In this document: one piece after another, positions 2,685 to 26,242 of the stretch
Position numbering within the stretch: position 1 is the first letter of the stretch
Layout of the letters: each line of letters starts with the position of its first letter
DNA from: Candidatus Saccharimonadota bacterium
GTDB taxonomy: Bacteria > Pseudomonadota > Gammaproteobacteria > Enterobacterales > Enterobacteriaceae
Reading direction: 5' to 3'
Length of the DNA stretch: 32,000 bases
Assembly: GCA_036689225.1 (NCBI GenBank)
Contig: CP144768.1
Span: 90,001 to 122,000, forward strand
Notes under the pieces: model-generated
Database searches by the model: none
What the model was told of the DNA's origin: nothing
The model's input: only the letters and a program-made list of their open reading frames with translations
Program-made: the position numbers and the translations under genes

Positions 2685-3245
2685 TTATTTTTTTTTAAAT
2701 AAAAAAAATTTATTATTTTGGTTTTTTTTTTTTTTATATATTTTTCAAGTATTTGGTATATTTATATATTTATTTTTTTTATGTGTTTCTATATATATTA
2801 AACTATTTTTTTTTATTAATTTATTTTTTTCTATTATTTCAATAGATTTATTTAATATATTAATCATTTTATATGGAGGATCTATAAAAATTAAATCTAA
2901 TTTTATGTTTTTATTTTTTTTTAATCAAGTTATTAAATTTATATTTATTATTTTATAATTTTTATAATTTATTTTTTTTAAATTTTTTTTTATATTTTTA
3001 TATATTTTATAATTTTTTTCTATAAAAAATACAAATTTTGCATTATTAGATAAACATTCTATACCTAATATTCCACTTCCTGAAAAGCAATCTAAACATA
3101 TTTTGTTTTTTATATTATTATTTAATCAATTAAAAATTGTTTTTCTTACTTTTATTAAAGTAGGTTTTAATAATTTATTATTTATTGTTTTTATATGTAT
3201 ATTTTTTAATTTTCCTGATATTATTTTTATATATTTTTTTTTCAT
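2685..3245 (-). CDS. rsmD: 16S rRNA (guanine966-N2)-methyltransferase RsmD
   Basis: The gene is 186 aa under table 4. ..LKPTLIKVRKTIFNWLNNNIKNKICLDCFSGSGILGIECLSNNA..LIFIDPPY.. matches RsmD (E. coli LRPTTDRVRETLFNWL..CLDCFAGSGALGLEALSR..VFVDPPF). Three in-frame TGA codons are read as Trp. The stop is TAA at 2685-2687. Confidence 0.85.
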
Positions 3246-3346
3246 ATTATATTTTATATTTTATAATATAAATTATTTAATGTTTATTAAAATATATTTT
3301 AATATATATATATAATATATTTATATTTATATTATTATGTATTAAT

Positions 3347-4204
3347 ATGTTTAATAATATTATTAATTCTAATTTATTTAATAAAAATAATTTAAATTCT
3401 TATATATATATGGTTAATTCTTTACCTGTTTTATCTTTAGAAAAAGAACATAAATTAATTACTAGATTTTATTATTATGGTGATTTAGAATCAATAAAAG
3501 AATTAATTTTATTAAATTTACGTTTTGTTATATATATAACAAAAAATTATTCTGGTTATGGTTTATCTAGATTAGATTTAATTCAAGAAGGTAATATTGG
3601 TTTAATGAAATCCATAAAAAAATTTAATCCTTTTTTTGGTGTTAGATTAATATCTTTTGCTATTCATTGAATTAAAGCAGAAATACATAATTATATATTA
3701 AAGAATTGGAGAATTGTAAAAATTGCTACAACTAAATCTCAACGTAAATTATTTTTTAATTTAAGAAAAATTAAAAAAAAAATGGGGTGGTTTAATAATA
3801 AAGAAATAAAATTTATTTCTAGTAAATTAAATGTTTCTAAAAAAGATATAATAGAAATGGAATCTAGAATGTTTAATAAAGATATAGAAATAGATTTTAA
3901 TATAAATAATTTTAATAAAAATAAGTTTTTAAATATTTTAGGAGATAAAAATTCTAATTTTGCTAATAATATAGAAATATATAATTGAAAAAAATATATT
4001 TTTAAAAAATTAAAATTTTCTTTAAATATATTAGATAATAGAAGTAAATATATAATTATTTCAAGATGATTAAATAATAAGAAAAAAAAAACATTAAAAA
4101 AATTGGCTGAATATTATTCAGTTTCTGCTGAAAGAATTCGTCAAATAGAAAAAAATGCTATGAAAAAAATAAAAATATTTTTAAAAAATAAAAGTAATTT
4201 TTAG
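3347..4204 (+). CDS. rpoH: RNA polymerase sigma-32 (heat-shock sigma factor)
   Basis: The gene is 285 aa, joined over 3 TGAs. Region 2 reads [62 protein letters not shown], which includes the RpoH box QRKLFFNLR. Region 4 reads TLKKLAEYYSVSAERIRQIEKNAMKK. The gene uses both TGG (3788-3790) and TGA for Trp. The stop is TAG at 4202-4204. Confidence 0.93.
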
Positions 4205-4798: not shown

Positions 4799-6118
4799 AT
4801 GTATAATGAAATGACTCCTCAAGAAATTGTAAATGAATTAAATAAATTTATTATTGGTCAAGATAATGCTAAAAAAGCAGTTGCTATTGCTTTAAGAAAT
4901 AGATGACGTAGAATGCAATTAACTAAAGAATTTAGAAATGAAATTACTCCTAAAAATATTTTAATGATAGGACCTACTGGTGTAGGTAAAACTGAAATAG
5001 CTCGTCGTTTAGCTAAATTAAGTAATTCTCCTTTTATTAAAGTGGAAGCTACTAAATTTACTGAAGTAGGTTATGTTGGTAAAGAAGTTGATTCTATAAT
5101 AAGAGATTTAATAGATTATGCTGTAAAAATGATTAAAAATCAAACTATAGAAATTAATATATTAAAAGCTAAAAAAATAGCTGAAAAACGTGTATTTAAT
5201 ATTTTAATTCAAAATTTAGATAAAAATAATGATAAAAATTATGTTATAGAAAAAGATTCTATATTACATAAATTACGTAATGGAGATTTAGATAATAAAA
5301 TTATTGATGTTAATATTAATATTCCTTCATTAGGAATAGAAATAATGTCTCCTCCTGGTATGGAAGATATGACTAATCAATTACAATCTATTTTTCGTAA
5401 TTTGAGTAGTAAAAAAAAAAAAATACATAAATTAAAAATAAAAGATGCTATGAATTTACTTATTGAAGAAGAATCATCTAAATTAGTTAATTTTGATGAT
5501 GTTAAACGTAGAGCTATTGATTTAGTAGAACAACAAGGTATTGTTTTTATTGATGAAATTGATAAAGTTTGTAAAAGAGGAGAAATTAGTGATTCTGGTG
5601 TATCTAGAGAAGGAGTTCAAAGAGATTTATTACCTTTAATAGAAGGTTGTACAGTATCTACTAAATATGGTGTTATTAAAACTGATTATATATTATTTAT
5701 AGCTTCAGGATCTTTTCAATTTTGTAGTCCTTCAGATTTAATACCTGAATTACAAGGTAGATTACCTATTAAAGTAGAATTAAGTGCTTTAACAAATAAA
5801 GATTTTGAAAGAATTTTAGTTGAACCAGATATTTCTATTACATCACAATATAAAAATTTATTAAAAGTTGAAGGTGTTAAAATAAGTTTTACTAATGATG
5901 GAATAAAGTCTTTAGCTAATATTTCTTGAAAGATTAATGAAAATACAGATAATATAGGTGCTAGAAGATTACATACAGTATTAGAAAAATTAATGGAAGA
6001 TATATCTTTTAATGCTAATAAATATAAAAATAAATCAATTTTAATAGATTCTAAATATGTAAATTTAAAATTAAATAATTTAATTATAAGTGAAGATTTA
6101 AGTAAATTTATATTATAA
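4799..6118 (+). CDS. hslU: ATP-dependent protease ATPase subunit HslU
   Basis: The gene is 439 aa. [41 protein letters not shown] is nearly identical to the E. coli HslU N-terminus, with TGA 4904-4906 at the conserved Trp. Walker A reads [21 protein letters not shown] and Walker B reads [19 protein letters not shown] is present, and a second TGA is read as W in ..[21 protein letters not shown]. Confidence 0.97.
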
Positions 6119-6144
6119 TTATTTATTATTTTTTTTTAATATTA

Positions 6145-6190
6145 TATATATATAATATATATAATATATATAATATATATAATATATATA
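6145..6190. repeat. tandem 9-bp repeat (AATATATAT) x4 plus partial copy
   Basis: Read directly from the sequence. Unit starts are at 6154, 6163, 6172 and 6181, with a related partial unit before them. The repeat lies in the hslU-orf91 spacer. Confidence 0.85.
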
Positions 6191-6260
6191 AATTATATTT
6201 TAAAATATTTGGTATTTTTATTTATTTTATATTATATATTTGATAATATATTATATATTT

Positions 6261-6536
6261 ATGAAATTTAAAAATTGAAATAGAAATATAGCTATAAATA
6301 TAGCTTTTAAAGAAAATATTATTTTAAATATATATTATTGAAGAATAATTTTTTATTTTAGATTTTATTATTTAAAAAATAAAATTATTCCTAATACAAG
6401 AAATTTATTAAATTTTTTAAATAAAAGATATAATTATAAATATAATAGTTTATATTTATTTAAATTATTTCCAAAAGGAGTAATAAAACAAATTACTAAA
6501 ATTTCTTGTTTACCTAATAATATGCAATGTTTTTAG
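6261..6536 (+). CDS. hypothetical 91-aa protein (orphan; open only under table 4)
   Basis: The frame runs from ATG at 6261 to TAG at 6534-6536 and contains two in-frame TGAs. It translates to MKFKNWNRNIAINIAFKENIILNIYYWRIIFYFRFYYLKNKIIPNTRNLLNFLNKRYNYKYNSLYLFKLFPKGVIKQITKISCLPNNMQCF. A stretch of 91 codons without TAA or TAG is improbable by chance in DNA this AT-rich. I recognise no homologue. Confidence 0.3.
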
Positions 6537-6549
6537 TTAAATATAAATT

Positions 6550-6762
6550 ATGAAAAAAAAAATACATCCTAAAATTTTTAGTTTAAAAATAAGTTGTTCT
6601 TGTGGAAATATAATAAATATTTTATCTACATTAAAAAATAATTTTTTTGTAGATGTTTGTTATAAATGTCATTCTTATTATACAGGAAAACAAAAAACTT
6701 CCTTTTCTAAAGGAAGAATAGAAAATTTAAAAAAAAGATTTAATAATATAAATTATATATAG
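6550..6762 (+). CDS. rpmE: 50S ribosomal protein L31
   Basis: MKKKIHPKIFSLKISCSCGNIINILSTL..VDVCYKCHSYYTGKQK..GRIENLKKRFN matches L31 (E. coli [47 protein letters not shown]), including the Cys motif. The stop is TAG at 6760-6762. Confidence 0.93.
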   Translation: MKKKIHPKIFSLKISCSCGNIINILSTLKNNFFVDVCYKCHSYYTGKQKTSFSKGRIENLKKRFNNINYI

Positions 6763-6778
6763 TATATATTATATATAA

Positions 6779-6798
6779 TATATATATATATATATATA
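6779..6798. repeat. (TA)10 dinucleotide repeat
   Basis: Read directly from the sequence. It sits between the convergent rpmE and murA ends and abuts the murA stop codon at 6799-6801. Confidence 0.85.
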
Positions 6799-8058
6799 TT
6801 AATTTATTTTTATATTTAAATTTTTAAATTTTTCTATTATATTTTCATATCCTCTATATACATGATATATAGATTTTATTATTGTTTTACCATATGCAAT
6901 ACATCCTGCTAGTATTAATGTTATTGAACATCTTAAATCTTTTGCAATTATAGTTTTACCAAAAATTTTTTTTACTCCATAACATATAATTTTATTATTT
7001 ATATTTTTTATTTTTGCACCCATTTTTTTTAATTCTTTAATATGTGAAAATCTTTTTTTAAATATATTTTCTATTATAATACTATTTCCTTTAGAAATAG
7101 AATTAAGTAATGTAAATTGTGGTTGCATATCTGTAGGAAAATTTGGATATGGATTAGTAATAATATTTACTGATTTACATCTTTTATTTTTCATATCTAA
7201 CATTATAAAATCATTTTTAATTTTAATTTTTGCTCCAGATAATTTTAATTTATTTATTATACATTTTAATAAATTAGGATTTGTATTATAACAAATTATT
7301 TTTCCTTTTGATATTGCGGATGCTAATAGATATGTTCCTGTTTCTATTCTATCTGGTAATATTTTATATATTATACATGATGATAATTTTTTAATTCCAT
7401 ATATAATTATTGTATTTGTTCCTGCTCCATATATATTTGCTCCTGATTTATTTAAAAAATTTATTGTATCTATTATTTCAGGTTCTTTAGAAGAATTTTT
7501 TATTATAGTTTTTCCTTTTATAAATATTGATGCTAATATACTTGTAATTGTAGCTCCTATACTTTTTTTTTTAAAAAAAATTATATTTGATTTTAATTTT
7601 TTATTTATTTTAGCTTTTATAATATTATTTTTATATTTTATTTTTACTCCTAAACATTTTAATGCATATAAATGTAAATCTATTGGTCTAGAACCTAGAT
7701 TACATCCTCCTGGAGTATTTAAAGTAATTTTTTTACATCTTATTAAAATTGGACTTAATAATCATATAGATGCTCTAATTTTTTTAATTAAATTTAATGG
7801 AAAATAATTATTATTTATATTTTTTGAGTTTATTATTATAGTATTTTTTTCTCTTATTATTTTTATACCTATTTTTTTAAATAATTTTAAAGTTATATTT
7901 ATATCTTCTATATTTGGTATATTTTTTATTGTTATTTCTTCTTTTATTAATAAAGAACTATATAATATTGGTAAAGCTGAATTTTTTGATCCTGATATTT
8001 TAACTTCTCCTTTTATTTTATTTGGTCCTAATATTATAAATTTATTTTTTTTTTTCAT
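6799..8058 (-). CDS. murA: UDP-N-acetylglucosamine 1-carboxyvinyltransferase
   Basis: The gene is 419 aa, joined at TGA 7762-7764 (..KKIRASIW-LLSPIL, E. coli TMRASIWALGPL). It carries GEVKISGSKNSALPIL, the catalytic Cys loop TPGGCNLGSRPIDLH, ILPDRIETGT, FPTDMQPQFTLL and DLRCSITLILAGCIA..IYHVYRGYE. The length of 1260 nt is a multiple of 3. Confidence 0.96.
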
Positions 8059-8821
8059 TATTATTTTTTATTATATTTAATATTTTAATAAAATTTTTTA
8101 TTTTAAGTGAATAATTACCTATTAATAATCCATCTATATTTTTTTGTGTTATAATTTTTTTTATATTTTTTATATTTATTGAACCTCCATATAATATTTT
8201 AATATTTTTAATATTTTTTTTACTTTTTTTATATATATAATTTTTAATATAAATATTTATTTTATTTATATGTTTTATATTTGCTATTTGTCCTGTACCT
8301 ATAGCTCATATTGGTTCATAAGCTATTATTATATTTTTAAATATATTAATATTATTTTTTTTTATTATATATTTTATTTGATTTTTACATATTTTTAAAC
8401 TTTTTTTATTTTTATAATCTTTTATATTTTCTCCTATACATAATATAGGAATTATTTTATTTTTTTGTGCTAATATAATTTTTTTTAATATAATTTTATT
8501 GTTTTCTTTATGATTTTTTCTTCTTTCTGAATGTCCAATTAATGTATATTTTATTCCAATATCTTGTAACATTATTGGAGATGTTTCTCCTGTATAAGGT
8601 CCTATTAAATTTTTATCAATATTTTGTGATATTAAATTTATATTTTTATTTTTTTTAATTATTTTTTTTATTTTATATAAATATATTATTGGAGGTGCTA
8701 TTAATATTAATATTTTATTATTTTTATTATATTTATTATATTTTATTAGTTTTTTAAAATATTTTTTTATAAATTTTAAATTTCCATTTAATTTTCAATT
8801 AGCTATAATTATTTTTTTCAT
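8042..8821 (-). CDS. tpiA: triosephosphate isomerase
   Basis: The gene is 259 aa. MKKIIIANW-KLNGN has TGA at 8795-8797, GHSERR is present, ILCIGEN is present, and AYEPIW-AIGTG has TGA at 8306-8308. ILYGGSIN is also present. The 3' end reads ..IKNNNEKKK-TAA, with the stop at 8042-8044, so it overlaps the murA start by 17 nt. Confidence 0.93.
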
Positions 8822-8932
8822 ATTTTATATATTTTTAAATTAATAATATTTATATTATAATTTAATTTATTAAATTATTATAAATATGTTATATTATTAT
8901 ATAAATAATTTATAATTTTTATTAAATATAAT

Positions 8933-9859
8933 ATGAAATATAAATCTGCTTTTTTAGATAGTATTAATAATTTTTTAAATATTAAAGAAAATGGAATATA
9001 TATAGATTGTACATTTGGTTGTGGTTATCATTCTCTTAAAATATTAAATTATTTAGGAAAAAAAGGTAAATTATATTCTTTTGATTGCGATTATGATTCT
9101 ATTAAAATTGGAAAAAAAATAATTAAAGATAATCGTATAAAATTAATAAATGATAATTTTATTAATTTAGAATATTATATTAAATTATTTAATTTATATA
9201 AAAAAATTGATGGTATTATTTTTGATTTAGGATTATCTTCTATACAATTGGATAATTCTATCAGAGGTTTTTCTTTTTTAAAAAATGGTCCTTTGGATAT
9301 GAGAATGAATCAAAAATTAGGTTTTCCTTTAAAAATTTGAATTAATAAAGCAAAAGAAAAAAATATTTATAATATAATAAAAAAATATGGACAAGATTAT
9401 AATTCTAAAAGAATATCAAAAAATATATTTTTATATTGTAAAAATAAAATTTTAAAAACTACTAATGATTTATCTAATATAGTAAAATATTCTGTAAATA
9501 ATTATAAAGATTATAAAAGTAAAGCTAGAGTTTTTCAAGCTTTTAGAATATTTATTAATAATGAATTATTTAATTTAAAAAATATTTTATATAAATGTTA
9601 TAAATTTTTGTCTAAAAAAGGTAGATTAGTTATAATTAGTTTTAATTCATTAGAAGATAAAATAGTAAAAGAATTTATTAAAATAAAATCAGATAGTAAT
9701 TATTCATTAATTAATAATATACCTTTAACTATTAATCAAATTAATAATTTTAATCCACCTGAATTAATTAATTTAGGTAAATTTAAACCTTTAAAAAAAG
9801 ATATTATTATAAATAATAGAATAAGAAGTGCTATATTAAGAGTTGCAGAAAAAATTTAG
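8933..9859 (+). CDS. rsmH: 16S rRNA (cytosine1402-N4)-methyltransferase RsmH/MraW
   Basis: The gene is 308 aa with one internal TGA. GIYIDCTFGCGYHS, IDGIIFDLGLSSIQLD..RGFSFLKNGPLDMRM, RVFQAFRIFINNEL, GRLVIISFNSLEDKIVK and RSAILRVAEK all parallel E. coli RsmH. The stop is TAG at 9857-9859. Confidence 0.93.
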
Positions 9860-9882
9860 TTTTGTTTAATAAGAGGTTTTTT

Positions 9883-11391
9883 TTGAAAAAAATTAATTTA
9901 AAAGATATTTTATTTAAATATTTTAATACTGATAATTTTCCTAATATTTATATAAGTGACATAAAACTTGATAGTAGATTAATTAAAAAAAATAATTTAT
10001 TTATAGCTATAAAAGGTTATAAATTAAATGGTAGAAATTATATAAATAATGCTATATTAAATGGAGCTATATCAATATTAACTTATTCTAATATAAATAA
10101 AAATTATTATTTTTTAAATTTAAAATATAATATTTTTATGTTTTTTATTTTTAATTTAAATTATTTTTTATCTGAAATATCTGGCAATTTTTATAATAAT
10201 CCAAGTAAAAAAATGTTTTTATTTGGTGTTACAGGAACTAATGGTAAAACAACTGTTGTTAATTTTATTTCTAATTGAATTTATTTATTAGGTTTAAAAA
10301 GTTCTGTTTTAAGTACTATAGGTAATGGTTTATATAATAATTTACATAATTCATTAAATACTACAGATTCTGCTGTTGAAATTCAATATGAATTAAATAA
10401 TCAATATAATATGGGTTCTAAATTTACTTCTATTGAAGTATCTTCACATTCATTAATTCAACATCGTGTTAGATCATTATATTTTTCTTCTGTTATATTT
10501 ACTAATCTTACTTTAGATCATTTAGATTTTCATAAAAGTTTTAAAAAATATGAATTAGCTAAAAAAAAATTATTTTTTGAATTTGGAGTTAAAAATTTAA
10601 TTATTAATATAGATGATCCTATTGGATTTAAATGATTTAGAAAATTATCACATAAATATGTTATTCCTGTAACATTTAATAAAAAATATATTATTTATTT
10701 TAAAAATAGATGATTATATATTAAAAAAATTATTTCTTTTGGTTTTTTAAGAAAAATTTATTTTGAATCTTATTTAGGTAATGGTATATTAAATATTTTT
10801 TTTCCTGGTAATTTTAATATTATTAATGTTATGTTAAGTTTTACATCTTTATTATCATTAAATTTTAATTTTGATAGTTTATTACGTAAAAGTAAATATT
10901 TAAGTTTACCTAAAGGACGTATGGAGTTTTTTTTTTGTAAAAAAAAACCATTATTTATAGTTGATTTTGCTCATACTCCTGATGCATTAAAAAATATTTT
11001 ATTAGAATCTAGAAAATATTGTTTAGGAAAATTATGATGTATTTTTGGTTGTACTGGTGATAGAGATAAAAATAAAAGATTTTTAATGGGATTTATAGCT
11101 AAAAAATATTCAGATATAGTTGTAATAACTAATGATGATTTATATTCTGAAGATGAAAATTCTATTTTAAAAGATATAAAATTAGGTATATATAATTTTA
11201 ATAATGTTTATATTATATTAAATAGAAAGTTAGCAATTAAATTTTGTATTGAAAATGCTAATTATAATGATGTTATATTAGTAGCGGGTAAAGGTCATGA
11301 AAATTTTCAAATTTTATTAAATAAAAAAATAAAATATTCTGATAGATATTTTATAAAAAAATTATTATTTAAATCTTTATGAAAAAAATAA
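9883..11391 (+). CDS. murE: UDP-MurNAc-L-Ala-D-Glu:2,6-diaminopimelate-type ligase MurE
   Basis: I prefer the TTG start at 9883, which lies 6 nt after AAGAGG (9871-9876), giving MKKINLKDIL.. (E. coli MADRNLRDLL). The track's TTG at 9862 is the alternative. GVTGTNGKTT, IEVSSHSLIQHRV, FTNLTLDHLDFH, DFAHTPDAL, KLW-CIFGCTGDRDKNKR and VAGKGHE are present, and five internal TGAs are read through as Trp. The terminal TGA at 11380-11382 is also read through, giving ..FKSLWKK-TAA (11389-11391). Confidence 0.93.
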
Positions 11392-12731
11392 ATTTATTAG
11401 ATATAGTTAATATTACTGATGCAATTTTAATAGGTAAAAATATATATATAGAAAATATTTGTATAGATACTAGAAATAAAAAAATTGTTAATTCTTTATT
11501 TATAATTATCAGAGGTAATTATAATATAGATTTTTTATGTTATGATGCTATTAATAAAGGTGCTGTAGCATTACTTTTAGATTTATATTTATTTAAATAT
11601 AGTAATATACCTCAATTAATTGTTAAAGATACTAAAATATCTTTAGGAAAGATATCAAATTGATTAAGGAAAAAAAGTTCTATTAAAATAATTTGTGTTA
11701 CAGGAAGTACAGGAAAAACCTCTGTAAAAGAAATTATTTATAATATTTTAAAACAGTCTAATAATGTATTATATAATATTTTTAATTTTAATAATGATTT
11801 AGGTGTATCTAATACTTTATTAAATTTACAATATTTTAAATATAAGTATGGAATATTAGAATTAGGTAGTAATTCTATTAATGATATTAATTATTTATCT
11901 AAAATAGTTTTACCTGATATTTCTTGTATTACTAATATTTGTATTTCTCATTTAAAAGGATTTAAATTATTTAATAATATAATAATTGATAAAGGAAAAA
12001 TATTTAAATATTTGTGTAAAAATGGTATAGCTATTATAAATAAAAATTATTTTTATTATAATTATTGAAATAAATATTTATTTAATAAAAAAGTTATATT
12101 TTATAATTTTTTAGATATTTTAAAATGTAATGTATTTATTAATGATTTAAATTTTAGTATTTTTGGTACATATTTTACCTTAAATATTTTAGGATTTAAA
12201 AAAAAAATTTTTATTAAATTATTAGGTATTCATAATATTATAAATATTTTATTATCTGTTATAGTATCTTTATCATTAGAAATAAGTTTTAAAGATATTC
12301 AATTAGGTTTAGAAAGTTTACTACCTATTAAAGGTAGATTATATCCTATTTTTTTAAGTAAAACTAAAATAATTTTAGATGATTCTTATAATTGTAATCC
12401 TAGATCTTTATATTTTGGTACTTTATTTTTACAAAAATGTAATGGTTATAAATTATTAGTTATTAGTGATATGTTAGAATTAAGTTATATGTCTTTATTT
12501 TATCATAAATATATGGGTTTAATTATAAAAAATTTATATATTAATAAGATATTAAGTATAGGTAAATATAGTTATTATATTTCTAAATATAGTAAAATAG
12601 GAGAACATTGTAATAATTTTAATATTTTATTATTTAAAATAAAAAAAATATTAAATTTTTATAATGAAGTTACTATTTTAATTAAAGGATCTAATTTATT
12701 TAATATGAATAAAATAATTAATTTTTTATAG
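11379..12731 (+). CDS. murF: UDP-MurNAc-tripeptide:D-Ala-D-Ala ligase MurF
   Basis: The gene is 450 aa with two internal TGAs. ..IPQLIVKDTKISLGKISNW-LRKK..IICVTGSTGKTSVKE, NNDLGV, ILELGSN, LDDSYNCNP and LIKGSN parallel E. coli MurF (LPQLIVKDTRLAFGELAAWVR..ALTGSSGKTSVKE..LDDSYNAN..VKGSR). The ATG overlaps the murE 3' end. Confidence 0.9.
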
Positions 12732-12738
12732 GATAAAT

Positions 12739-13785
12739 ATGATAATTTTTTTTTTAAATTTATTTTTTTTTAATGTTTTTATTCCTTTTTTTTTATCTTT
12801 TATTTTTTCTTTTTTTTTTATAAAATATTTTATATTTTTTTTATGTAATTTAAATGTTTTTCAAAATATTCGTATTTTTATTCCTAAAAATCATTTTTTT
12901 AAAAAAAATATACCTACTATGGGTGGTATATCAATATTATTTTCTTTTTTTTTTATATTTTATATTTTTTTTTATAAAAAATATAATTTTGATATATTAA
13001 TTTTAATTTTATTTTTTGTTTTAAATAGTTTAATAGGATTTTTAGATGATTATTTAAAATGTTTTGTAAAAAATTCTAATGGATTATCTATATTTAATAA
13101 ATATATTTTGCAATCTTTTTTTTCTTTTTTATATATATATTATTTATATTATTATAGTTTTTTAAATATTAATTATTATATTTATTTATTTAAATATAAA
13201 TTAAATATAAGTTATATTTATATTTTATTTTGATATTTTATATTAGTTGGAACTTCTAATTCTGTAAATTTTACTGATGGTTTAGATGGTTTAGTTAGTT
13301 TTCCTTTAATTTTAAATTTTATATTTTTATTAATTGTTTCTGTAAGTGAATATTTTTTAATTTTTAATAATATTATTATTAATTATAATTATTTAATATT
13401 TATAAATTATTTAATAATATTTATTAGTATAATTTTAGGTTCATTATTATCTTTTTTATATTATAATTTTTATCCTGCTAAAATTTTTTTAGGAGATGTA
13501 GGTTCTTTATCTTTAGGTTTTCTTTTAGCAGCAATTTTTATTTTATTAAATAAAGAATTTATTTTATTTATAAGTGGTTTTGTTTTTTTTATAGAATTTA
13601 TTTCTGTTATATTGCAAATTTTTTGATTTAATTTTTTAAATAAAAGAATATTTTTAATGGCTCCATTACATCATCATTATGAATTATTAAATTATAAAGA
13701 ACAGAATATTGTATTTTTTTTTTGATTTTTATCATTTTTTTCATTTTTAATTTCACTATTTATATTTTTTAAATTTTATGTTTAA
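12739..13785 (+). CDS. mraY: phospho-N-acetylmuramoyl-pentapeptide transferase
   Basis: The gene is 348 aa, a polytopic and Phe-rich protein, with three TGAs read as Trp. GFLDDYLK, NSVNFTDGLDGL, PAKIFLGDVGS and APLHHHYE are the conserved MraY motifs. The stop is TAA at 13783-13785. Confidence 0.95.
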
Positions 13786-15097
13786 TTATATTAATAAAAA
13801 TATTGTTATTTTAGGTGTTGGTTTAACTGGATTATCATGTTTAAATTATTTTCTATCATTAAATATATTTCCTAAATTAATTGATTCTAATAAAATAAGT
13901 AATATTTCTATTCCTAAAGGAATAAAATGTTGTTTTGGTTATTTAAATGAGAATTGAATATTAAATGCAGATTTAATTATTATTAGTCCTGGTATTAATT
14001 CTTATAATAAAGTAATTATTAAAGCTAAAAAAATTGGTATAGAAATTATTAATGATATAGAAATATTTTGTAGATTAGTTAATAAACCTATTATTGCTAT
14101 AACTGGAACTAATGGTAAAAGTACTGTAGTATCTTTATTATTTAATATTTTTAAATCTTATAATATTAAAGTATCATTAGGTGGAAATATTGGTATTCCA
14201 GTACTTAGTTTATTAAATGATAATAGTGATGTATATATATTAGAAATTTCAAGTTTTCAATTAGAATATATATATTCTTTAAAAGCTTTTTGTTCAGTTA
14301 TTTTAAATGTTACATATGATCATATGGATAGATATCCTAATGGATTTCAAGACTATTTTTTTAGTAAATTTAAAATTTTTAATAATTCTAAATATTGTAT
14401 AATTAATTTTAATGAAAAAGAAACTTTATTTAAAAATCTTTTTGATAAAAAAATAATTACTTTTGGATATAATAAAGGAGATTATTATATTAAAAAAAAA
14501 AAAAATTTTTATTTTTTATATTCATATAATAATTTTTATGTAAGTAATAAATTAATTTATTTAAAAGGTATTTTTAATTATTTAAATATTTTGGTTACTA
14601 TTTGTATTTCTGAAATTTTTAAAATTCCTAAAAATATAGTTTTATATAATTTAATTAATTTTATTGGTTTACCTCATAGATTTTCTATAATTAAAAAAAA
14701 TAATGGAATTTTATGAATTAATGATTCTAAATCTACTAATATAGCTAGTACTTTAGCTGCTTTAAATAATTTATCTAATGTTAAAGGTAGAATATGATTA
14801 ATAATGGGAGGAGATAATAAAAATGTTGATTTTAATAAATTTTTAAAACCTAATTTATTATTATATAATAATTTATTTATTTGTTGTTATGGTAAAAGTA
14901 AAAATATTATATTTAATTTGATTCCTAAAATTTCTTTTAAATTTAATTTTTTATCTAATGTTATTAAATATATTTTAAATTATTTAAAATATAATGATGT
15001 AGTATTATTTTCTCCAGGATGTTCTAGTTTAGATCAGTTTGTTAATTATAAAGAAAGAGGTAATGAATTTATAAAATTAGTTAATAAATATAATTAA
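13778..15097 (+). CDS. murD: UDP-MurNAc-L-Ala:D-Glu ligase MurD
   Basis: The gene is 439 aa, and its ATG at 13778 overlaps the mraY end by 8 nt. NIVILGVGLTGLSC, DIEIFCR..PIIAITGTNGKSTV, LEISSFQLE, LNVTYDHMDRYP, GLPHRFS, W-INDSKSTN and SPGCSSLDQFVNYKERGNEF parallel E. coli MurD. Confidence 0.93.
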
Positions 15098-15123
15098 AAT
15101 TTTAATTTATATATAATTATAGA

Positions 15124-16164
15124 ATGAATCGTATAATGATTATTACTGGAGGTACTGGAGGTCATATATTTCCTGGTTTAGTTATATCTAAATATTTAAA
15201 AAAAAAAAAATATAAAATAAAATGAATAGGTACTAAAAATGGTTTAGAATCTATTTTAGTTCCTAAAAATAAAATAGATATTGAATATGTATATATTCCT
15301 AATATTTTAAGTTTTAAAAATATATTTTTATATATAAAATCTATATATATTATTATAAAAAAAATAAAATTGTGAAAACCAAATTTAGTTTTAGGATTTG
15401 GTGGTTATATTTCTTTTTTTGGAATTTTTTCATCTTGATTATGTAATATTCCTACTATTATACATGAACAAAATTCTGTTTTAGGATTATCTAATAGAAT
15501 TTTATATTATATTGCTACAAAAAGTATTCAAGCATATAAAAATACTTTTCAATCAGATGTTATTATAGTAGGTAATCCTATTAGAGAAGAAATATTATCT
15601 ATAAAACCTCCTAATATTAGATTATTAAATCGTAAAGGTAATATAAATATATTAATAATGGGAGGTAGTCAAGGTTCTGAAATTATTAATAATATTATTT
15701 TTAATATTATTAATGTTTTAGATATAAATAAATATTCTTTTTTACATCAAGTTGGAATTTTAAATTATAAAAAAAATATAAAATTAATTAATAGTATTAA
15801 AAGAAAAAATTATGTATGTGTTGATTTTATATATAATATATATAAAGTTTATAATTGAGCTGATTTAATAATATGTAGATCTGGTGCATTAACTGTTAGT
15901 GAAATTACTAGTATAGGTTTAGCAGCTATATTTATACCATTTGTACATAAAGATAATCATCAATATTTTAATGCAGAATTTTTATATAAAAAAAAAGCTG
16001 CTATTATAATAAATGAATATGAATTAAATGAAATTTTATTAATTAATATTATATTAAAATTAAATAGAAAAAAATTGTTTAATATGTCTAATTTATCTTA
16101 TTTAAATAGGATTAAAAATCCTAATAAAAAATTTATAAAGGAAATATTTAATATTATTCAATAA
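15124..16164 (+). CDS. murG: UDP-GlcNAc:lipid I N-acetylglucosaminyltransferase MurG
   Basis: The gene is 346 aa, joined across in-frame TGAs. [31 protein letters not shown] and [17 protein letters not shown] parallel E. coli MurG ([34 protein letters not shown]). It starts 26 nt after the murD stop. Confidence 0.93.
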
Positions 16165-16184
16165 TAATATGAAATTTTATTAAA

Positions 16185-17630
16185 ATGAACAATAATAATT
16201 TATTTTTTGGTATAAATAAAAAAAAATTTGTTATACATTTTATTGGTATTGGAGGTGTTGGTATGTCTTCAATAGCAGAATATATGTTTTTGTCCGGTTA
16301 TAATATAACTGGTTCTGATATATATATAAATGAAAGAACAAATTATTTATCTTCATTAGGAATTAAAGTATATAATTTTCATTCTAAAAATAATATTATA
16401 AATTGTAATTTAATTGTTTATTCTTCTGCTATTAATTGTTTAAATGAAGAAATTGTTTTTTCTAAAATTTATAATATTCCTATTATATCTAGAATTGAAA
16501 TGTTATATGAATTAACAAAATATAGTTATTTAATTACTGTTATTGGTACTCATGGTAAAACTACTGTTACTTCTATGATTTTTGATTTTTTTTTTAATTA
16601 TGGTATAAAAATTAATTGTATAAATGGAGGTAATATAAAGTCTATTAATTCTTATATTTATTTAAGTGATAGTAAATATTTTTTAATTGAATTAGATGAA
16701 AGTGATAATTTATTTAATTTATTTAAACCTACTATAGTAGTTTTAACTAATATAGATTCTGATCATTTAAATAATTATAATAATAATATTAATAATTTAA
16801 TTAATTCTTTTTTAATTTATATTAAAAATATTCCATTTTATGGTTATCTTATAACTTGTTTAGATAATAATAATATTAAATTTATTTTAAAAAATAATTT
16901 TTTAAAATGTAAAATTATTACTTATGGTTTTAATAAAGATTCTGATTTTTTAATTAAAAATTTAATACAAAAAAAAAATACATGTAATTTTGATTTATGT
17001 ATTAATAAAAAAAAAATATATAATTTAAATATAAATATATTTGGTAAATATAATATTTTAAATGTTGTTTCTTGTATAACTTTATTTAATCAGTTTTATA
17101 AAATAAATTTATTAGATATTCAAAAATTTTTATATTTTTTAAAAGGTGTTAGTAGAAGATCTGAAATAATTGGTGAATTTTCTTTTTCATATAAAAATAA
17201 ATTTTATAATAATATATTATTTATATCTGATTATGGTCATCATCCTACTGAAATAAAATATATATTAAAATCTTTAAAAGAATCTTGAAATAGAAGAATA
17301 ATAATGATATTTCAACCTCATAGATTTAGTAGAACTAAAATGTTATTAAATTATTTTGCTAATGTTTTATATAAAGTTAATATTTTATTATTATTAAATA
17401 TTTATTCAGCTTTTGAAAGTAATAATAATTATAATATTAGTAGTAATAAATTATTTTCATTAATGTATGATTTATATAATTATAAAAATTGTATTTTAAT
17501 TAATAATGATAATGAAATTTTTGAATATTTATTAAATATTATTATTGATAATGATATTATTATATTTCAAGGAGCTGGTAAAGTTAATTTTATTTTATCA
17601 GATTTTATTTCAAATTATATAAATAATTAA
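16185..17630 (+). CDS. murC: UDP-N-acetylmuramate:L-alanine ligase MurC
   Basis: The gene is 481 aa, joined at one TGA (..LKESW-NRRIIMIFQPHRFSRT). IHFIGIGGVGMSSIAE, GTHGKTTVTSM, TNIDSDHL and DYGHHPTEI are MurC motifs. Confidence 0.92.
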
Positions 17631-17657
17631 TTTTTATTAAATTTATAATAATTTTAT

Positions 17658-18578
17658 ATGAAAATTATAAATAATGTTGCTATATTTTTTGGTGGTAATT
17701 CTTCTGAAAGAAATATTTCTATAGAATCTGGTTATTCTATTTTTAGAATTTTATTAAAAAAAAAAATAAAAGTTTTTCCTGTAGATTTAAAATATTTTTC
17801 TTTAAATGATTTTTTGAAAAAAAAAATAGATAAAGTTTTTATAGCATTACATGGAAAAATAGGAGAAAATGGAAATATACAAGGTTTTTTAGATTTTTTA
17901 AATATTTCTTATACTGGAAGTGGAGTTTTTACTTCATCTTTATGTATAAATAAATATAATACTAAAAAATTTTTAAGTATATATAATATAAATGTATTAC
18001 CTGATTTTCTTTTAAAAAAAAATATAATTATTAAGAATAATTTTTTTAGATTATATAAAAAAATTTTATTTAAATTTAATGTTCCTTTTATATTAAAACC
18101 TAATGATCATGGATCAAGTATAGGTTTAAATTTAATAAATAATTTTATTGATTTTAAAAATTATTTTAATAAAAATATTAATTTTTTTAATGATTTTATA
18201 GTAGAAAAATATATTTTTGGTGATGAATATACTGTTGCTATATTAGATGGTAAAATTTTATGTCCAATTAATATTAAATTTAATAATAAAATTTTTGATT
18301 ATTATACAAAATATAAAAATATTAATAATTTTTCTTATTCTAATAATATTAAAATAAATATTAAAAATAAATTGATTGATATATCTAAAAATATATGAAA
18401 AATTTTAAATTGTAAAGGTTGTGTAAGAATAGATTATATTATAGATAAATTTAATAATATATGGTTTTTAGAATTAAATACTATTCCTGGAATGACTAAT
18501 ACTAGTTTAGTTCCAATTTGTGCTAAATTTTCTAATATTAGTTATTCTAAATTAATATTAAAAATTTTATATTGTTAA
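17658..18578 (+). CDS. ddl: D-alanine--D-alanine ligase
   Basis: The gene is 306 aa, the same length as I recall for E. coli Ddl[68 protein letters not shown] and [22 protein letters not shown] are present, with one internal TGA. The stop is TAA at 18576-18578. Confidence 0.92.
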
Positions 18579-18868
18579 TTTATAATTTTAATTTTTTTTA
18601 TTTTTGGATAGTTTATTTTTTTTATTATTTTTTTATTTTTTTTAATTAAGTATTTTTTTATATTTTTGTTATTAGTTTTTATATATATATTATTTTTTTT
18701 TATATTTATTATTTTATATTTTTTATTATTTTTTTTTAATAAAATATTGTTTATTTTTTTATTAATTTTTTTTATTAGTTTACTTTTTAATATTATTGAA
18801 TATAAATTACTTTTTTTTTTAAGATTATTAATTATTTTTTTAAATAATTTTGGTTTTTTATTTTTCAT
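18575..18868 (-). CDS. hypothetical 97-aa highly basic (Lys/Asn/Ile) protein; function unknown (speculatively DUF721/DciA-like)
   Basis: The frame runs from ATG at 18868 to TAA at 18575-18577 with no internal stop. It translates to [97 protein letters not shown]. It fills most of the ddl|secA gap and converges on ddl with a 4-nt overlap. A 71-aa Phe-rich ORF on the plus strand (18666..18881, TTG start) covers the same DNA, so the coding strand is not certain. Confidence 0.35.
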
Positions 18869-18985
18869 TATTGTTTTTTAATTTATAATAATATATATTA
18901 TAAATTACCTTAAATATTAAATAATAATATATATTTTATATTATTATTATAAATTTTTTATTATATACAAATTTTATATATTATT

Positions 18986-21487
18986 ATGTTTATTAAATTA
19001 TTTTCTAATATTTTTAATAATAAAAATAGAAAAAAAATTAATTATTTTTATAAAATTATAGATAAAATTAATAGTTTAAAAAATACTTTTTCTAAATATT
19101 CTGATTATACTCTTAAAAGTAATACTAGTATATATTGTAAAATGTTAAATTATAATAATATTTATGATTTTTTACCTTATATATTTACAAATATATATGA
19201 ATCTATAAAAAGAGTTTTTGGAATTAGATTATTTGATGTTCAATTATTAGGAGCATTATCATTATATGATGGATATATTATTGAAATGAAAACAGGAGAA
19301 GGTAAAACTATTACTTCTACTTTATCTGCATATTTTTATTCTTTGTTTAAAAAAGGTGTTCATATTATAACTGTTAATGATTATTTAGCTAAAAGAGATT
19401 GAGAAAATAATAGTAAATTATTTAATTTTTTAGGTTTAAATGTTGGTTTAAATTTACCTAATATGTCATTGTTAGAAAAAAAAAAATCTTATTTATGTGA
19501 TATTACTTATGGTACTAGTAGTGAATTTGGTTTTGATTATTTACGCGATAATATGGTTTTATCTAAAAATGATAAAGTTCAAAGAAAAAAATTATTTTAT
19601 GCTATTTTAGATGAAGTTGATTCAATTTTAATAGATGAATCTAGAACTCCTCTTATTATATCTAATGATTCTGAATTTGTTAATAATTTTTATAAAAAAA
19701 TAAAAGAAATTATTTTTAATTTTAAACCTGGATATAAAGAGAATTATAATGATAATTTGAATGATAAAGATTTTATAATTGATAAAAAATTAAATCAAAT
19801 TTTTTTTACTGAAAAAGGTTTTATTAATATAGAAAAAATATTTATAAAAACTAATATAATTAATAAAAGAAAATTTTCATATAATATTAAAAATATTAAT
19901 ATTATAAATTATACTATTTCTTTATTAAAAGCATATTATATTTATAAAAAAAATGTTGATTATTTAGTTAAAGATAATAAAATAATTATTATAGATGAAA
20001 ATACTGGTAGAATGGTTCCTGATAGAAGATGATCTGATGGATTACATCAAGCTTTAGAAATTAAAGAAAATGTTAAAATAAATTGTGATAATAAAATATT
20101 AGCTTCTATTACTTTTCAAAATTATTTTCGTATGTATAAAAAAATATGTGGTATGACTGGTACTGCTATAACTGAAGCATCTGAATTTAATATAATTTAT
20201 AATTTAGATACTATAGTTATTCCAACTAATAAACCTATGATTCGTATTGATTATAATGATTTAATTTATTTAACTGAAAAAGAAAAAATAGATTCTATAA
20301 TATATGATATAAAAAATAAACATATTAAAGGTCAACCAATATTAGTAGGTACTACATCTATTGAAAAATCAGAATATTTATCTTTTTTATTATCTAAAAT
20401 TGGTATAAAAAACAATGTTTTGAATGCTAAATATCATATGTTTGAAGCTAATATTATTTCTAAAGCTGGAAAATTAGGTTCTGTTACTATTGCTACTAAT
20501 ATGGCTGGTAGAGGTACTGATATAGTTTTAGGTGGTAATTTAATTGATGAAATATTTAAAATTAAAGATAAAAAATTAAATAAAAATAAAATAGATTTAA
20601 TTAAAAAAAATTGAAAAAAAAATCATAATTTAGTAGTTTCTTTAGGTGGATTATATGTTATAGGTACTGAAAAATATGAATCTAGAAGATTAGATAATCA
20701 ATTAAGAGGTAGATCTGGTAGACAAGGTGATCCTGGATCTTCTAGATTTTATTTATCTATGGATGATTCTTTAATGCGTATTTTTTCTTCTAAAAAAGTT
20801 ATTTATTATATGAGAAAATTAGGTATGAAATATGGTGAATTTATAGAACATCCATGAGTATCATTTTCCATTCAAAATGCTCAAAAAAAAGTTGAAAGTC
20901 GTAATTTTGAAATACGTAAAAATCTTTTATATTATGATAATATTTATAATGATCAAAGAAAAATTATTTATTCTAAAAGAAATGATATATTATATTCGAA
21001 AAATATATATAAATATATATGTAAATATATTAAAAATATAGTAAATAATTTTTTATTTTTATATTTTAATAATAGGATATTATTTAATAAATATTTTAAA
21101 TATTTAAATGTTAAAATATTAAATTTATGATTAATTAATTATGATTTTTTTAAAATTTATAATTTTATTTTAAATAAAATAATATTTTTTTATAAAAAAT
21201 GTAAAAAAAAAATTAATAAAAATATATTATATAAATTACAAAAAAATATAATGTTAAAAACATTAGATATTTTTTGAACAGAATATTTATATATAATTGA
21301 TAATTTAAAAGAAGGTATAAATTTATGTATTTATGCTCAAAAAAATCCTAAACAAGAGTATAAAATAAAATCTTTTAATATTTTTATAAATATGTTAGAT
21401 AATTATTATATTGAAGTTATAAAAATTTTTTTAAATTTACCTACAGATTATAATAAATTATATAAATTTATAAATTTATATTTATAA
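18986..21487 (+). CDS. secA: preprotein translocase ATPase SecA (lacks C-terminal zinc-finger tail)
   Basis: The gene is 833 aa, joined over 7 TGAs, including the conserved Trp in PDRRW-SDGLHQA (20030-20032) and IEHPW-V (20855-20857). [83 protein letters not shown] and ESRNFEIRK are present. The stop is TAA at 21485-21487. Confidence 0.97.
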
Positions 21488-21571: not shown

Positions 21572-23014
21572 ATGATTAAAAATAATTTTTTTTGTTTATT
21601 TTTAATATTAATTTTATTTAATAATAATTATGTTTATAGTAATAAAAAAATAATTTTAAATTATTCTAAATTATTTAAAATTAATAATAATAATAATAAT
21701 AATTGTAATTTTTTAAATAATGTTTGTTCTTCATTAGTTTTAATAAAATCACGAATATTTTCTTTTAAAAATATTTATTATAAATATAATAATATTTTAA
21801 ATTTTAAATATTATTTAAATTTTTTAAAATATAAAAAATATAATAATAATTTTAATTTTTATATTAAAAAAAATAATTTTTTTAAAAAAAAAAATAGATC
21901 TTATTATTATAGTTTTGGTACTGGTATTATTATTGATAATATTAATGGTTATATTATTACTAATAGTCATGTTATTGATATGAGTAATGATATATTAATA
22001 AAATTAAATGATGGTAGAGAATATTCTGCATTTTTAGTTGGACAAGATAAATATGTTGATATAGCTGTTTTAAAAATTAAAAATTTTAAAAATATTAATT
22101 CTATTAAAATAGGAAATTCTGATAATTTATATTTGGGGGAAAAAATTTTTTCTTTAGGTTATCCTTATAATTTAAATTTATCTATTACTTCTGGTATAAT
22201 TTCTGGTTTAAATAGAAATAATATAGGTATACAAAAATATGAAAATTTTATTCAAACTGATTCTTTAATTAATTCTGGTAATTCAGGTGGTGCTTTAATA
22301 AATATTAAAGGAGAATTAATAGGTATTAATACTGCTGCATTAGTTTCTAATAATGGAAATAATTTAGGTATAAGTTTTTCTATACCTATTAATATGATAA
22401 AAAATATTGTAAATCAAATTATTAAAATAGGAGAATCTAAACATATAAATTTTGGTTTTTTTGCTATTAATATAGATAATAATATAAAAAAAATAAAAAA
22501 TATTTATAATAATTTTGGAGTATTTATTACTTATATAAAAAAAAATTCTTTATTTAATAAATATAAAATATTTGTTGGTGATATTATATTATTTATTAAT
22601 AATAAATTTGTTTTATCTTTAGAAGATTTAAATTATAAATTATCTACATTTTTAGTAGGTGATTATATTAATATAGGTTTATTAAGAAAAAATAAATTAA
22701 TATATAAAAAAATATTTTTATTTAATGATGATAAAAATATTTATAATTTTGATATTTTATATAATAATTTTAAAAATTTAGGTTTAACTACATATAATTA
22801 TTTAAATTTAAATAAAAATAATATATATGGAGTATATATAAGTAAAATATTAAATAATAATAATTTTTTTAAAATTGGTGATATTATTATTAATATAAAT
22901 AATAAAAATATTAATAATTTATTAGATTTAAGAAAAATTTTATATTTAAAACCTAAATTTATTTTAATAAAATTATTACGTAACAGAAAATTTATTTATT
23001 ATTATTTAAAATAA
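21572..23014 (+). CDS. degP: periplasmic serine endoprotease DegP/DegQ (HtrA family)
   Basis: The gene is 480 aa with a signal-like N-terminus, MIKNNFFCLFLILILFNNNYVYS. The catalytic triad contexts are GTGIIIDNINGYIITNSHVI, DIAVLKI and YENFIQTDSLINSGNSGGALINIKGELIGINTA, the last nearly identical to E. coli DegP. Two PDZ-like C-terminal repeats are present (GDIILFINNK.., GDIIININNK..). The gene has no Trp codon at all. Confidence 0.9.
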   Translation: MIKNNFFCLFLILILFNNNYVYSNKKIILNYSKLFKINNNNNNNCNFLNNVCSSLVLIKSRIFSFKNIYYKYNNILNFKYYLNFLKYKKYNNNFNFYIKKNNFFKKKNRSYYYSFGTGIIIDNINGYIITNSHVIDMSNDILIKLNDGREYSAFLVGQDKYVDIAVLKIKNFKNINSIKIGNSDNLYLGEKIFSLGYPYNLNLSITSGIISGLNRNNIGIQKYENFIQTDSLINSGNSGGALINIKGELIGINTAALVSNNGNNLGISFSIPINMIKNIVNQIIKIGESKHINFGFFAINIDNNIKKIKNIYNNFGVFITYIKKNSLFNKYKIFVGDIILFINNKFVLSLEDLNYKLSTFLVGDYINIGLLRKNKLIYKKIFLFNDDKNIYNFDILYNNFKNLGLTTYNYLNLNKNNIYGVYISKILNNNNFFKIGDIIININNKNINNLLDLRKILYLKPKFILIKLLRNRKFIYYYLK

Positions 23015-26094: not shown

Positions 26095-26242
26095 TTTTTT
26101 ATATTAATTAATTTTATTTTATTTTTTAAAAAAAATAAAATGTTAAAATTATTTTTAATTTAAAATTAATTTATTTATAATATTTTTTATATAAATCTTA
26201 TTTAAGATATATTTAATAATTTAGTTTTAAATAATGTATAAT

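Follow-up and report, generated by a model that had tools for sequence, protein, structure and literature searches.

A dcw cluster stripped to its mur genes, with a probable dciA gene before secA, in the Stammera symbiont of Terpsis quadrimaculata

The subject of this analysis is the division and cell wall (dcw) cluster found in a 32,000-nucleotide stretch of contig CP144768.1 (positions 90,001 to 122,000, the whole of which is referred to below as the window), which is a part of the published genome of the Stammera symbiont carried by the tortoise beetle Terpsis quadrimaculata. This genome was described as having 268,407 bp, a guanine-plus-cytosine (GC) content of 14.8%, 249 coding sequences and no plasmid (Table S2, Garcia-Lozano et al., 10.1101/2023.12.12.571295). 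The GC content of the window is 14.6%, and in a scan with one genome per species its nearest genomes were two Candidatus Stammera capleta chromosomes, whose MurG proteins are 72–76% identical to that of the window. The open reading frames (ORFs) were fragmented under genetic code table 11 and were joined into 28 full-length genes under table 4 (UGA = Trp). UGA is almost the only tryptophan codon in use: between them, the ten genes running from murA to secA include 27 in-frame TGA codons and a single TGG, which is located in ddl. The use of code 4 by Stammera has been reported (PMC13462651). Naming of the ORFs with NCBIfam and Pfam profiles revealed that positions 8933–18578 (code 4) are occupied by rsmH-murE-murF-mraY-murD-murG-murC-ddl, followed by a minus-strand ORF of 97 amino acids and secA. 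The features of the locus, including the separate murA gene, are the following:

6799..8058, minus strand, murA, UDP-GlcNAc enolpyruvyl transferase, first committed step; TIGR01072, 485.9 bits against a cut-off of 392.7; GGC loop with the catalytic Cys
8822..8932, tpiA-rsmH divergent spacer, 111 nt; in E. coli the slot of mraZ and its promoter
8933..9859, plus strand, rsmH, 16S rRNA m4C1402 methyltransferase, first operon gene; TIGR00006, 272.8 bits against a cut-off of 154.3
9862..11391, plus strand, murE, third-residue ligase; TIGR01085, 437 bits against a cut-off of 257; P-loop GTNGKT
11379..12731, plus strand, murF, D-Ala-D-Ala adding ligase; NF008041, 348.8 bits; P-loop GSTGKT; overlaps murE by 13 nt
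12739..13785, plus strand, mraY, lipid I synthase; TIGR00445, 248.8 bits against a cut-off of 192; DDYLK, NFTDGLDGL, GDVGS and HHHYE; D115, D116 and D267 align
13778..15097, plus strand, murD, D-Glu ligase; TIGR01087, 331.4 bits against a cut-off of 212; P-loop GTNGKS; overlaps mraY by 8 nt
15124..16164, plus strand, murG, lipid II synthase; TIGR01133, 278.2 bits against a cut-off of 250; GGTGGH and GGSQG
16185..17630, plus strand, murC, L-Ala ligase; TIGR01082, 399.7 bits against a cut-off of 335; P-loop GTHGKT
17658..18578, plus strand, ddl, D-Ala-D-Ala ligase, last operon gene; NF002378, 289.3 bits against a cut-off of 243
18575..18868, minus strand, probable dciA, DnaB helicase loader, 97 amino acids; convergent with ddl (4-nt overlap), divergent from secA
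18869..18985, dciA-secA divergent spacer, 117 nt; with dciA it fills the 407 nt in place of ftsQ-ftsA-ftsZ-lpxC
18986..21487, plus strand, secA, anchor on the downstream side of the ancestral cluster; product with 49% identity to E. coli SecA

The order and orientation of rsmH, murE, murF, mraY, murD, murG, murC, ddl and secA are identical to those of the dcw cluster of E. coli and the Enterobacterales, with genes overlapping or abutting, and comparison with the annotated E. coli K-12 record confirmed the conserved rsmH-led mur/mraY/ddl order up to secA. Unlike the E. coli cluster, the locus does not contain mraZ, ftsL, ftsI, ftsW, ftsQ, ftsA, ftsZ, lpxC or secM, it has the probable dciA on the minus strand before secA, and it is read with code 4 at the low GC content mentioned above. 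The spacers left at the places of mraZ and the division genes are too small to accommodate them, namely 111 nt upstream of rsmH, 2–23 nt between rsmH and murE (the ftsL-ftsI slot), 26 nt between murD and murG (the ftsW slot) and 407 nt between ddl and secA. The rsmH-murE distance depends on the start codon of murE, which is TTG 9862 (2 nt) or TTG 9883 (23 nt); the latter aligns with the N-terminus of the E. coli protein and, judged by sequence, is the more likely start. The other spacers are 7 nt (murF-mraY), 20 nt (murG-murC) and 27 nt (murC-ddl). Since the co-directional genes from rsmH to ddl abut or overlap, their spacing suggests that they most likely form a single operon read from the 111-nt tpiA-rsmH spacer, the presumed promoter region. 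By its gene content, the locus passes as a Mur/MraY/MurG operon but fails as a full dcw cluster. The murA gene, which is unlinked to the dcw cluster in E. coli, encodes a protein 83–86% identical to its counterparts in the related strains L001 and L002, and it was not found at the corresponding position in strains L007, L009 and L010.

Seven of the lipid II enzymes (MurA, MurE, MraY, MurD, MurG, MurC and Ddl) scored above the NCBIfam cut-offs and their catalytic motifs are kept, while MurF reached 276.7 bits against TIGR01143, just under the cut-off of 288.6 (12 bits short). The ten active-site residues of Ddl that were checked are all conserved (E15, S150, K215, Y216, R255, D257, E270, N272, S281, L282). 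The Mur proteins are 32–40% identical to their E. coli counterparts, compared with 49% for SecA. An earlier note on this DNA, which was made from the letters of the window, had described the cluster in the same way: its gene order, coordinates and spacers were reproduced on recomputation, the motifs it quoted (those of MraY, MurG, the ligase P-loops and the GGC loop of MurA) are all present, its E. coli order matches the K-12 record, and its claim that neither the division genes nor lpxC and mraZ occupy their slots is borne out by the spacers. The conservation of the motifs and of every residue checked also agrees with its view that the mur genes are catalytically intact, as far as sequence can indicate. 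Its statement that every lipid II synthesis gene is kept is valid for the genes of the dcw cluster and murA, but not beyond them, as murB, murI/alr, uppS and a flippase gene are not in the window. More generally, MurB, Glu/Ala racemases (murI/alr), UppS/BacA, GlmSMU, a flippase and a polymerase were all missing within these 32 kb. Together, murA and the cluster genes would cover the route from UDP-GlcNAc to lipid II, apart from the contributions of MurB, the racemases and the lipid carrier genes.

The same locus was read in eleven further Stammera chromosomes anchored on SecA, giving twelve strains with the window, and the gene order around it was collinear in all twelve. Two strains, L006 (306 kb) and L014 (312 kb), have the mur genes together with ftsA and ftsZ in the ancestral slot, followed by dciA and secA. 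One strain (L015, 283 kb) has the mur genes and ftsZ only, and another (L004, 326 kb) has the mur genes and ftsA only, with ddl split and zapD kept after secA. In L008 (283 kb), the mur genes are accompanied by an ftsZ pseudogene in place. Four strains, namely that of the window, L001, L002 and L011, contain the mur genes only, murE being split in L011, while in the remaining three, L007 (the type strain, from Cassida rubiginosa), L009 (213 kb) and L010, the whole mur block is deleted and rsmH abuts dciA or secA. Thus, rsmH still adjoins the secA region in the strains without the mur block; in these three strains it is flanked directly upstream by tpiA or tusE, and no mraZ was seen wherever the flank was visible. 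None of the twelve strains carries mraZ, ftsL, ftsI, ftsW, ftsQ, lpxC or secM at the locus. The L008 relic lies at 8771–10000, in 1.2 kb without a called gene between ddl and secA, and consists of three collinear FtsZ-like pieces in different frames with many stops; this gap matched the ftsZ of L015 in a blastn comparison with E = 8e-18. Because ftsA and ftsZ, where present, always occupy the ancestral slot and one ftsZ is decaying there, the comparison points to a stepwise loss of the division genes in place and not to their movement. The loss proposed earlier is thus favoured over relocation both by the intact genes in the slot of L006, L014, L015 and L004 and by the L008 pseudogene.

A tblastn search with the FtsZ and FtsA proteins of L006, L004, L014 and L015 detected no significant relic in the 407-nt gap or elsewhere in the 32-kb window. 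Where tblastn was run without composition correction, it gave many spurious matches rich in K, N and I (e.g., ZapD against every gap), which were disregarded. A protein search seeded with E. coli FtsZ was dominated by enteric sequences among the 120 best of 8000 matches and was uninformative on Stammera. The part of the Stammera literature covered contained no mention of ftsZ in Stammera and no supplementary gene lists with fts genes.

It was also observed that the division genes disappear one at a time and in varying order. L015 keeps ftsZ (8824–9912) but not ftsA, and its FtsZ does not have the conserved peptide that binds FtsA at the C-terminus of the L006 protein, whereas L004 keeps ftsA (8363–9634) and zapD (12591–13319) and has no ftsZ in the slot.

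None of the nine ORFs, those of rsmH and the eight mur/ddl genes, is disrupted in any of three genomes (window, L001 and L002), which differ at 11–17% of nucleotides. When unconstrained change was simulated at this divergence, 10–15 in-frame stops arose per gene and none of 2000 replicates stayed open. The ftsZ relic of L008, riddled with stops, is an example of an unconstrained sequence within the clade. The nine operon and MurA proteins are 65–86% identical to those of L001/L002, compared with 78–82% for SecA, HtpG, DnaX and RsmH. The ratios of non-synonymous to synonymous substitution rates (dN/dS, Nei-Gojobori) were 0.22–0.73 for the mur genes and 0.33–0.53 for the housekeeping genes secA, htpG, dnaX and rsmH, of which the relative comparison alone is meaningful, since the synonymous sites are nearly all A/T and saturated and the absolute values are inflated. 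The dN of the mur genes was at most about 1.6 times that of secA. A published maximum-likelihood estimate of dN/dS for the Stammera core genes is 0.038. The ddl-dciA junction is common to the window, L001 and L002 within −4 to +32 nt. Because the ORFs are open where unconstrained change would have given 10–15 stops per gene, the mur operon has been held by selection, and on the sequence evidence this purifying selection has acted since the three lineages split, after the ddl-dciA junction had formed. The comparison of dN/dS with relatives proposed in the earlier note thus placed the mur genes close to housekeeping genes, and neutral evolution, which would have spoken against its reading, is contradicted by the stop simulation.

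The MurE proteins differ from that of E. coli at the substrate recognition motif. The Asn and Arg of the DNPR motif (413–416 in E. coli) bind the distal carboxylate of meso-diaminopimelate (meso-DAP) (PMC3829189). The motif is intact in the MurE of E. coli and of the Plateumaris reed-beetle symbiont, but it is replaced in all seven Stammera MurE sequences examined, by DDLY in the window (residues 425–428), L001, L002, L004 and L008 and by DDPY in L011, so that the signature of a meso-DAP-adding MurE is missing. R389, D413, G464 and E468 are kept in Stammera. Since the two residues binding the distal carboxylate are replaced in all Stammera sequences examined, the third residue of the stem peptide is probably no longer meso-DAP. 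The change is derived and was then conserved exactly at the specificity residues, which speaks for an enzyme that would still work but accept a different substrate, perhaps L-lysine.

The ORF in the ddl-secA gap, regarded previously as an orphan, is conserved across strains. Orthologues with 47–72% amino acid identity were found at the same place and in the same orientation in L001, L002, L009, L006 (between ftsZ and secA), L007 and L011, and the dN/dS of the ORF was 0.24–0.37. The coordinates are 13497–13802 in L001, 13498–13797 in L002, 9604–9897 in L009 and 9397–9870 in L012, the symbiont of the reed beetle Plateumaris pusilla. The ORF is retained even in L009, the smallest genome (213 kb), which has no mur block. 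In Gammaproteobacteria, dciA is located between secA and lpxC, and it is present in Enterobacterales without dnaC (Brezellec et al., PMC5109545). The position of the ORF, upstream of and divergent from the adjoining secA in seven Stammera strains and the Plateumaris symbiont, corresponds to this arrangement. Four of eight orthologues, including the 157-amino-acid ORF at the same position in the Plateumaris symbiont, matched Pfam PF05258 (DciA/DUF721) below the threshold of 24 (15.8–22.6 bits, E 1e-4 to 0.016), while the window copy gave no match. A single-sequence AlphaFold2 model of the ORF had a mean predicted local distance difference test score (pLDDT) of 80.5 and a helix-strand-strand-helix-strand topology. 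With this model, the top two Foldseek matches in the PDB were the V. cholerae DciA chains 8a3v_C and 8a3v_D from the DnaB-DciA complex (probability 1.00, template modelling (TM) score 0.63–0.67), followed by DnaA domain I and the Deinococcus DciA 7ykm. The predicted structure thus shows the KH-like fold that is found in the N-terminal part of V. cholerae DciA and in DnaA domain I. Considering the weak PF05258 matches, the predicted fold and the lpxC-secA position, the gap ORF is probably dciA, an assignment in which we have fairly high confidence. An antisense artefact or a secM relic was ruled out by the conservation of the ORF in seven strains at 47–72% identity, its dN/dS of 0.24–0.37, its survival in L009, and its DciA-like fold and position. 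If the ORF is dciA, then E. coli, whose order includes secM but lacks dciA, does not provide the exact ancestral template that had been assumed, because in this lineage the place upstream of secA is taken by dciA instead of secM. Accordingly, the claim that secM was lost from its slot is right in that no secM is present here, but the gene may never have stood there in this lineage.

No match at E ≤ 0.01 was obtained for the 97-amino-acid ORF among 5.8 billion proteins, probably because the ORF is uncalled or filtered as low complexity, and a PDB sequence search with a three-sequence profile returned only noise. The gene calls of several strains (L006 and L007) list no ORF at the dciA position. 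As a separate observation, the length of a poly(A) run (9–14 A) breaks the reading frame of the dciA-like ORF in three strains, next to the ATG in L006 and L007 and near the 3′-end in L011; the shift sites lie on the minus strand at about 9900–9930 in L006, 9905–9930 in L007 and 9700–9720 in L011. These frameshifts could represent sequencing errors, incipient decay or dependence on transcriptional slippage.

Apart from the dcw cluster, a second ancestral slot in the window has been emptied of fts genes:

3246..3346, spacer between rsmD (minus strand, 2685–3245) and rpoH (plus strand, 3347–4204), 101 nt

In E. coli, ftsY-ftsE-ftsX stand between rsmD and rpoH, whereas in the window the latter two are divergent neighbours separated by only 101 nt; this adjacency without ftsY-ftsE-ftsX was also found in L007, L009 and L010. 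The emptied slot therefore gives the same picture as the dcw slots, and the disappearance from its slot of ftsY, the gene of the signal recognition particle receptor, is notable by itself.

The 5′ part of the window contains rpsA′, ssb, dnaB, rsmD, rpoH, hslV, hslU, a DsrC/TusE-like gene, rpmE, murA (minus strand) and tpiA (minus strand), the middle part is formed by the cluster from rsmH to secA, and the 3′ part contains degP, dnaX, htpG, recA (minus strand), alaS, csrA, two tRNA genes, a porin gene (minus strand) and asnS′ (minus strand). Compared with E. coli, some rearrangement is apparent, as murA lies beside tpiA, and recA and alaS are on opposite strands. The tpiA gene (8042–8821) and degP (21572–23014), which encodes a DegP/HtrA periplasmic protease, are present in the window and deleted in both close relatives, L001 and L002. 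An OmpF/PhoE-type porin is encoded at 30565–31644; given the porin and DegP, the outer membrane and periplasm are presumably still maintained in this strain. The adk gene follows htpG in L004, L006, L007, L008, L010, L014 and L015, but it is not at this position in the window (htpG-recA gap, 26095–26395), L001 (19534–19600), L002 and L009; likewise, recA is not at the post-htpG position in L009 and L015. While murA directly follows rpmE in the window, the corresponding region of L007 has no murA, and a 591-amino-acid ORF without a Pfam match is located there at 5676–7451 (minus strand), between the DsrC-like gene and rpmE.

The reed-beetle (Donaciinae) symbiont, a pectinolytic leaf-beetle symbiont, is a reported close relative of Stammera. 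In the symbiont of Plateumaris pusilla (CP046226.1, the L012 genome mentioned above, 515 kb), the same stripped cluster was found, running rsmH-murE...ddl, the minus-strand DciA-like ORF and secA. The gene tables of Donaciinae symbionts list mreB, rodA, mrdA, minC, minD, minE and ftsH, while neither gene names nor KEGG orthology (KO) numbers in them point to ftsZ, ftsA or ftsW (supplements of PMC7289800 and PMC12508126). One RAST annotation names an FtsI. The Mur pathway with the elongasome but without the Z-ring seems therefore to be a viable state in this group. For these symbionts (0.45–0.52 Mb), the tables thus list a Min system without FtsZ, its only known target, an odd combination that has seemingly passed without comment.

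Considering these results jointly, the best explanation of the locus, with a probability of about 0.7, is that it is a remnant of a dcw cluster from which the fts genes were deleted in place, while the mur genes are under selection and still useful without a Z-ring, and dciA is retained. According to this explanation, ftsA and ftsZ would have been deleted in place and the mur genes would have stayed under purifying selection afterwards; because of this selection after the loss of ftsA and ftsZ, the pathway most likely still yields a muropeptide-lipid precursor with a use even in the absence of a Z-ring. The dciA gene would have been kept since DnaB loading is needed. By analogy with the reed-beetle symbionts, the likeliest use of the precursor, to which we give slightly less than even odds, would be a thin sacculus assembled by a synthase of the elongasome type (MreB/RodA/PBP2) whose genes lie elsewhere in the genome; such a sacculus would make the cells mechanically and osmotically robust while they are transmitted extracellularly in the egg caplet. 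The earlier suggestion that RodA/PBP2 may be encoded elsewhere is plausible for Stammera, and it would be the most economical model because the reed-beetle group shows the Mur pathway and elongasome without a Z-ring. Several points have to be set against the joint explanation. Besides the inflation of the absolute dN/dS values, the mur block is wholly gone in three strains, ddl is split in L004 and murE in L011. Because three strains live without it entirely, the mur pathway is dispensable in some hosts, and it is eroding clade-wide. In addition, the absence of ftsZ, ftsA, SEDS (shape, elongation, division and sporulation) proteins of the FtsW/RodA family and class B penicillin-binding proteins (PBPs) from the rest of the 268-kb genome is something that we infer, and the intact ftsA and zapD of L004, without ftsZ in the slot, leave room for an ftsZ elsewhere in the genome of that strain.

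The last point bears on the possibility that ftsZ, ftsA, ftsW, ftsI and the others are intact elsewhere and only the cluster was broken up. The rearrangements of murA, recA and alaS relative to E. coli are in line with such relocation, as is L004, since FtsA and ZapD have no known role in the absence of FtsZ. Nevertheless, all four strains with ftsA and/or ftsZ have them in the ancestral ddl-secA slot, ftsZ is decaying in that very slot in L008, all 12 strains are collinear around the locus, the gene tables of the reed-beetle symbionts, whose genomes are twice as large, are without ftsZ, ftsA and ftsW, and no FtsZ/FtsA similarity was detected anywhere in the 32-kb window; relocation is thus quite unlikely. 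Still somewhat less credible, and in our view very improbable, is the idea that the mur operon is a functionless relic not yet deleted, belonging to an incomplete pathway that makes nothing useful. In the pangenome of Stammera, peptidoglycan genes do count as accessory ("some, all, or almost none"), the symbiont of A. quinquefasciata has no murD, murE, ddl, bamA or phoE (PMC12905250), that of C. alternans has no murA, and the deletions in L007, L009 and L010 and the split genes of L004 and L011 fit with this idea. It is opposed by the intactness of the nine ORFs in each of three diverged genomes against a neutral expectation of 10–15 stops per gene, by the mur dN not exceeding about 1.6 times that of secA, by the conservation of every catalytic residue checked, by the retention across the clade of the derived MurE motif itself, and by the state of a truly unselected gene of the clade, the stop-filled ftsZ of L008.

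A third alternative accepts that the pathway is active but assigns it a non-structural role, lipid II or muropeptides serving as a division cue or as a host signal or immune modulator, as proposed for Chlamydia and Wolbachia; in one variant, the altered MurE may yield a non-DAP product that evades DAP-type recognition by the immune deficiency (IMD) pathway of insects. The persistence of the pathway without FtsZ, FtsA, FtsW and FtsI at the locus and the replacement of the DAP-carboxylate-binding MurE residues in all Stammera sequences would suit such a role, DAP-type peptidoglycan is an elicitor of IMD in beetles (PMC6431197), and cell-wall differences between Stammera strains have been invoked for host immune responses (PMC12905250). 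However, strains devoid of mur genes remain able to colonise their hosts and to serve them, so any such signal is not universally required, and the role is compatible with a thin sacculus and not exclusive of it. We regard it as unlikely in comparison with remnant mur genes supplying a structural precursor. A more specific version of the preferred explanation, which we put forward only tentatively and consider rather doubtful in its entirety, is that the Mesomphaliini strains (window, L001 and L002) are truly without FtsZ and FtsA, both live and spread extracellularly, and still produce as well as need a peptidoglycan precursor whose third residue has shifted away from DAP, for example to host-supplied lysine, possibly blunting DAP-type immune recognition.

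If this more specific version is true, the clade would be a natural allelic series for the function of lipid II without a divisome and for division without FtsZ. The sister strains span ftsA plus ftsZ, either one, neither, and no mur genes at all, and the symbionts can be swapped experimentally between beetle hosts; because the hosts can be cross-infected, the question is open to comparative and experimental test. The retention of lipid II after the loss of the Z-ring or of a visible wall is a long-standing question in Chlamydia and Wolbachia, and the clade studied here holds every intermediate and both end states. The results bear also on the survival of a 0.2–0.3 Mb bacterium outside cells during transmission, and they correct the published annotation in that the ORF before secA is probably DciA and the substrate-recognition motif of MurE is altered in a manner specific to the clade. 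What makes the locus valuable is this naturally occurring series of states in a single symbiosis that is amenable to experiments, together with the MurE and DciA observations.

The arrangement had been regarded as unusual, but it is one common state in a clade in which peptidoglycan genes were already reported to be accessory, and it is not unique. The reed-beetle symbionts ("Macropleicola"; Plateumaris pusilla) resemble the window in having an fts-less stripped cluster and a DciA-like ORF before secA; they differ from it in their approximately twofold genome size, the use of code 11, a MurE with DNPR, the encoded mreBCD, rodA, mrdA and minCDE, and a full-length DciA of 157 amino acids. Chlamydiae lack FtsZ, keep the lipid II pathway and divide by means of MreB and a septal peptidoglycan ring. 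In having a Mur/MraY/MurG pathway in a reduced genome, apparently without FtsZ, the window strain is similar to these bacteria, which are its closest functional analogue. Chlamydiae, however, keep ftsW, ftsI/pbp3, ftsK and ftsQLB and are strictly intracellular, whereas the cluster of the window has neither ftsW nor ftsI and the bacterium is transmitted extracellularly. Wolbachia retains both the lipid II pathway and ftsZ, and Buchnera generally keeps ftsZ. Retention of peptidoglycan genes is reported (Smith et al. 2022) to vary among Buchnera lineages, and the Stammera strains are similar to these, and to the mosaic host-symbiont pathway of the mealybug symbiont Moranella, in that their peptidoglycan genes are accessory and erode differently among sisters. 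The tiny-genome symbionts Carsonella, Sulcia and Hodgkinia have neither ftsZ nor peptidoglycan genes; an end state like theirs has been reached by L007, L009 and L010, in which rsmH abuts secA or dciA, whereas the window strain is at an intermediate state that is held under selection.

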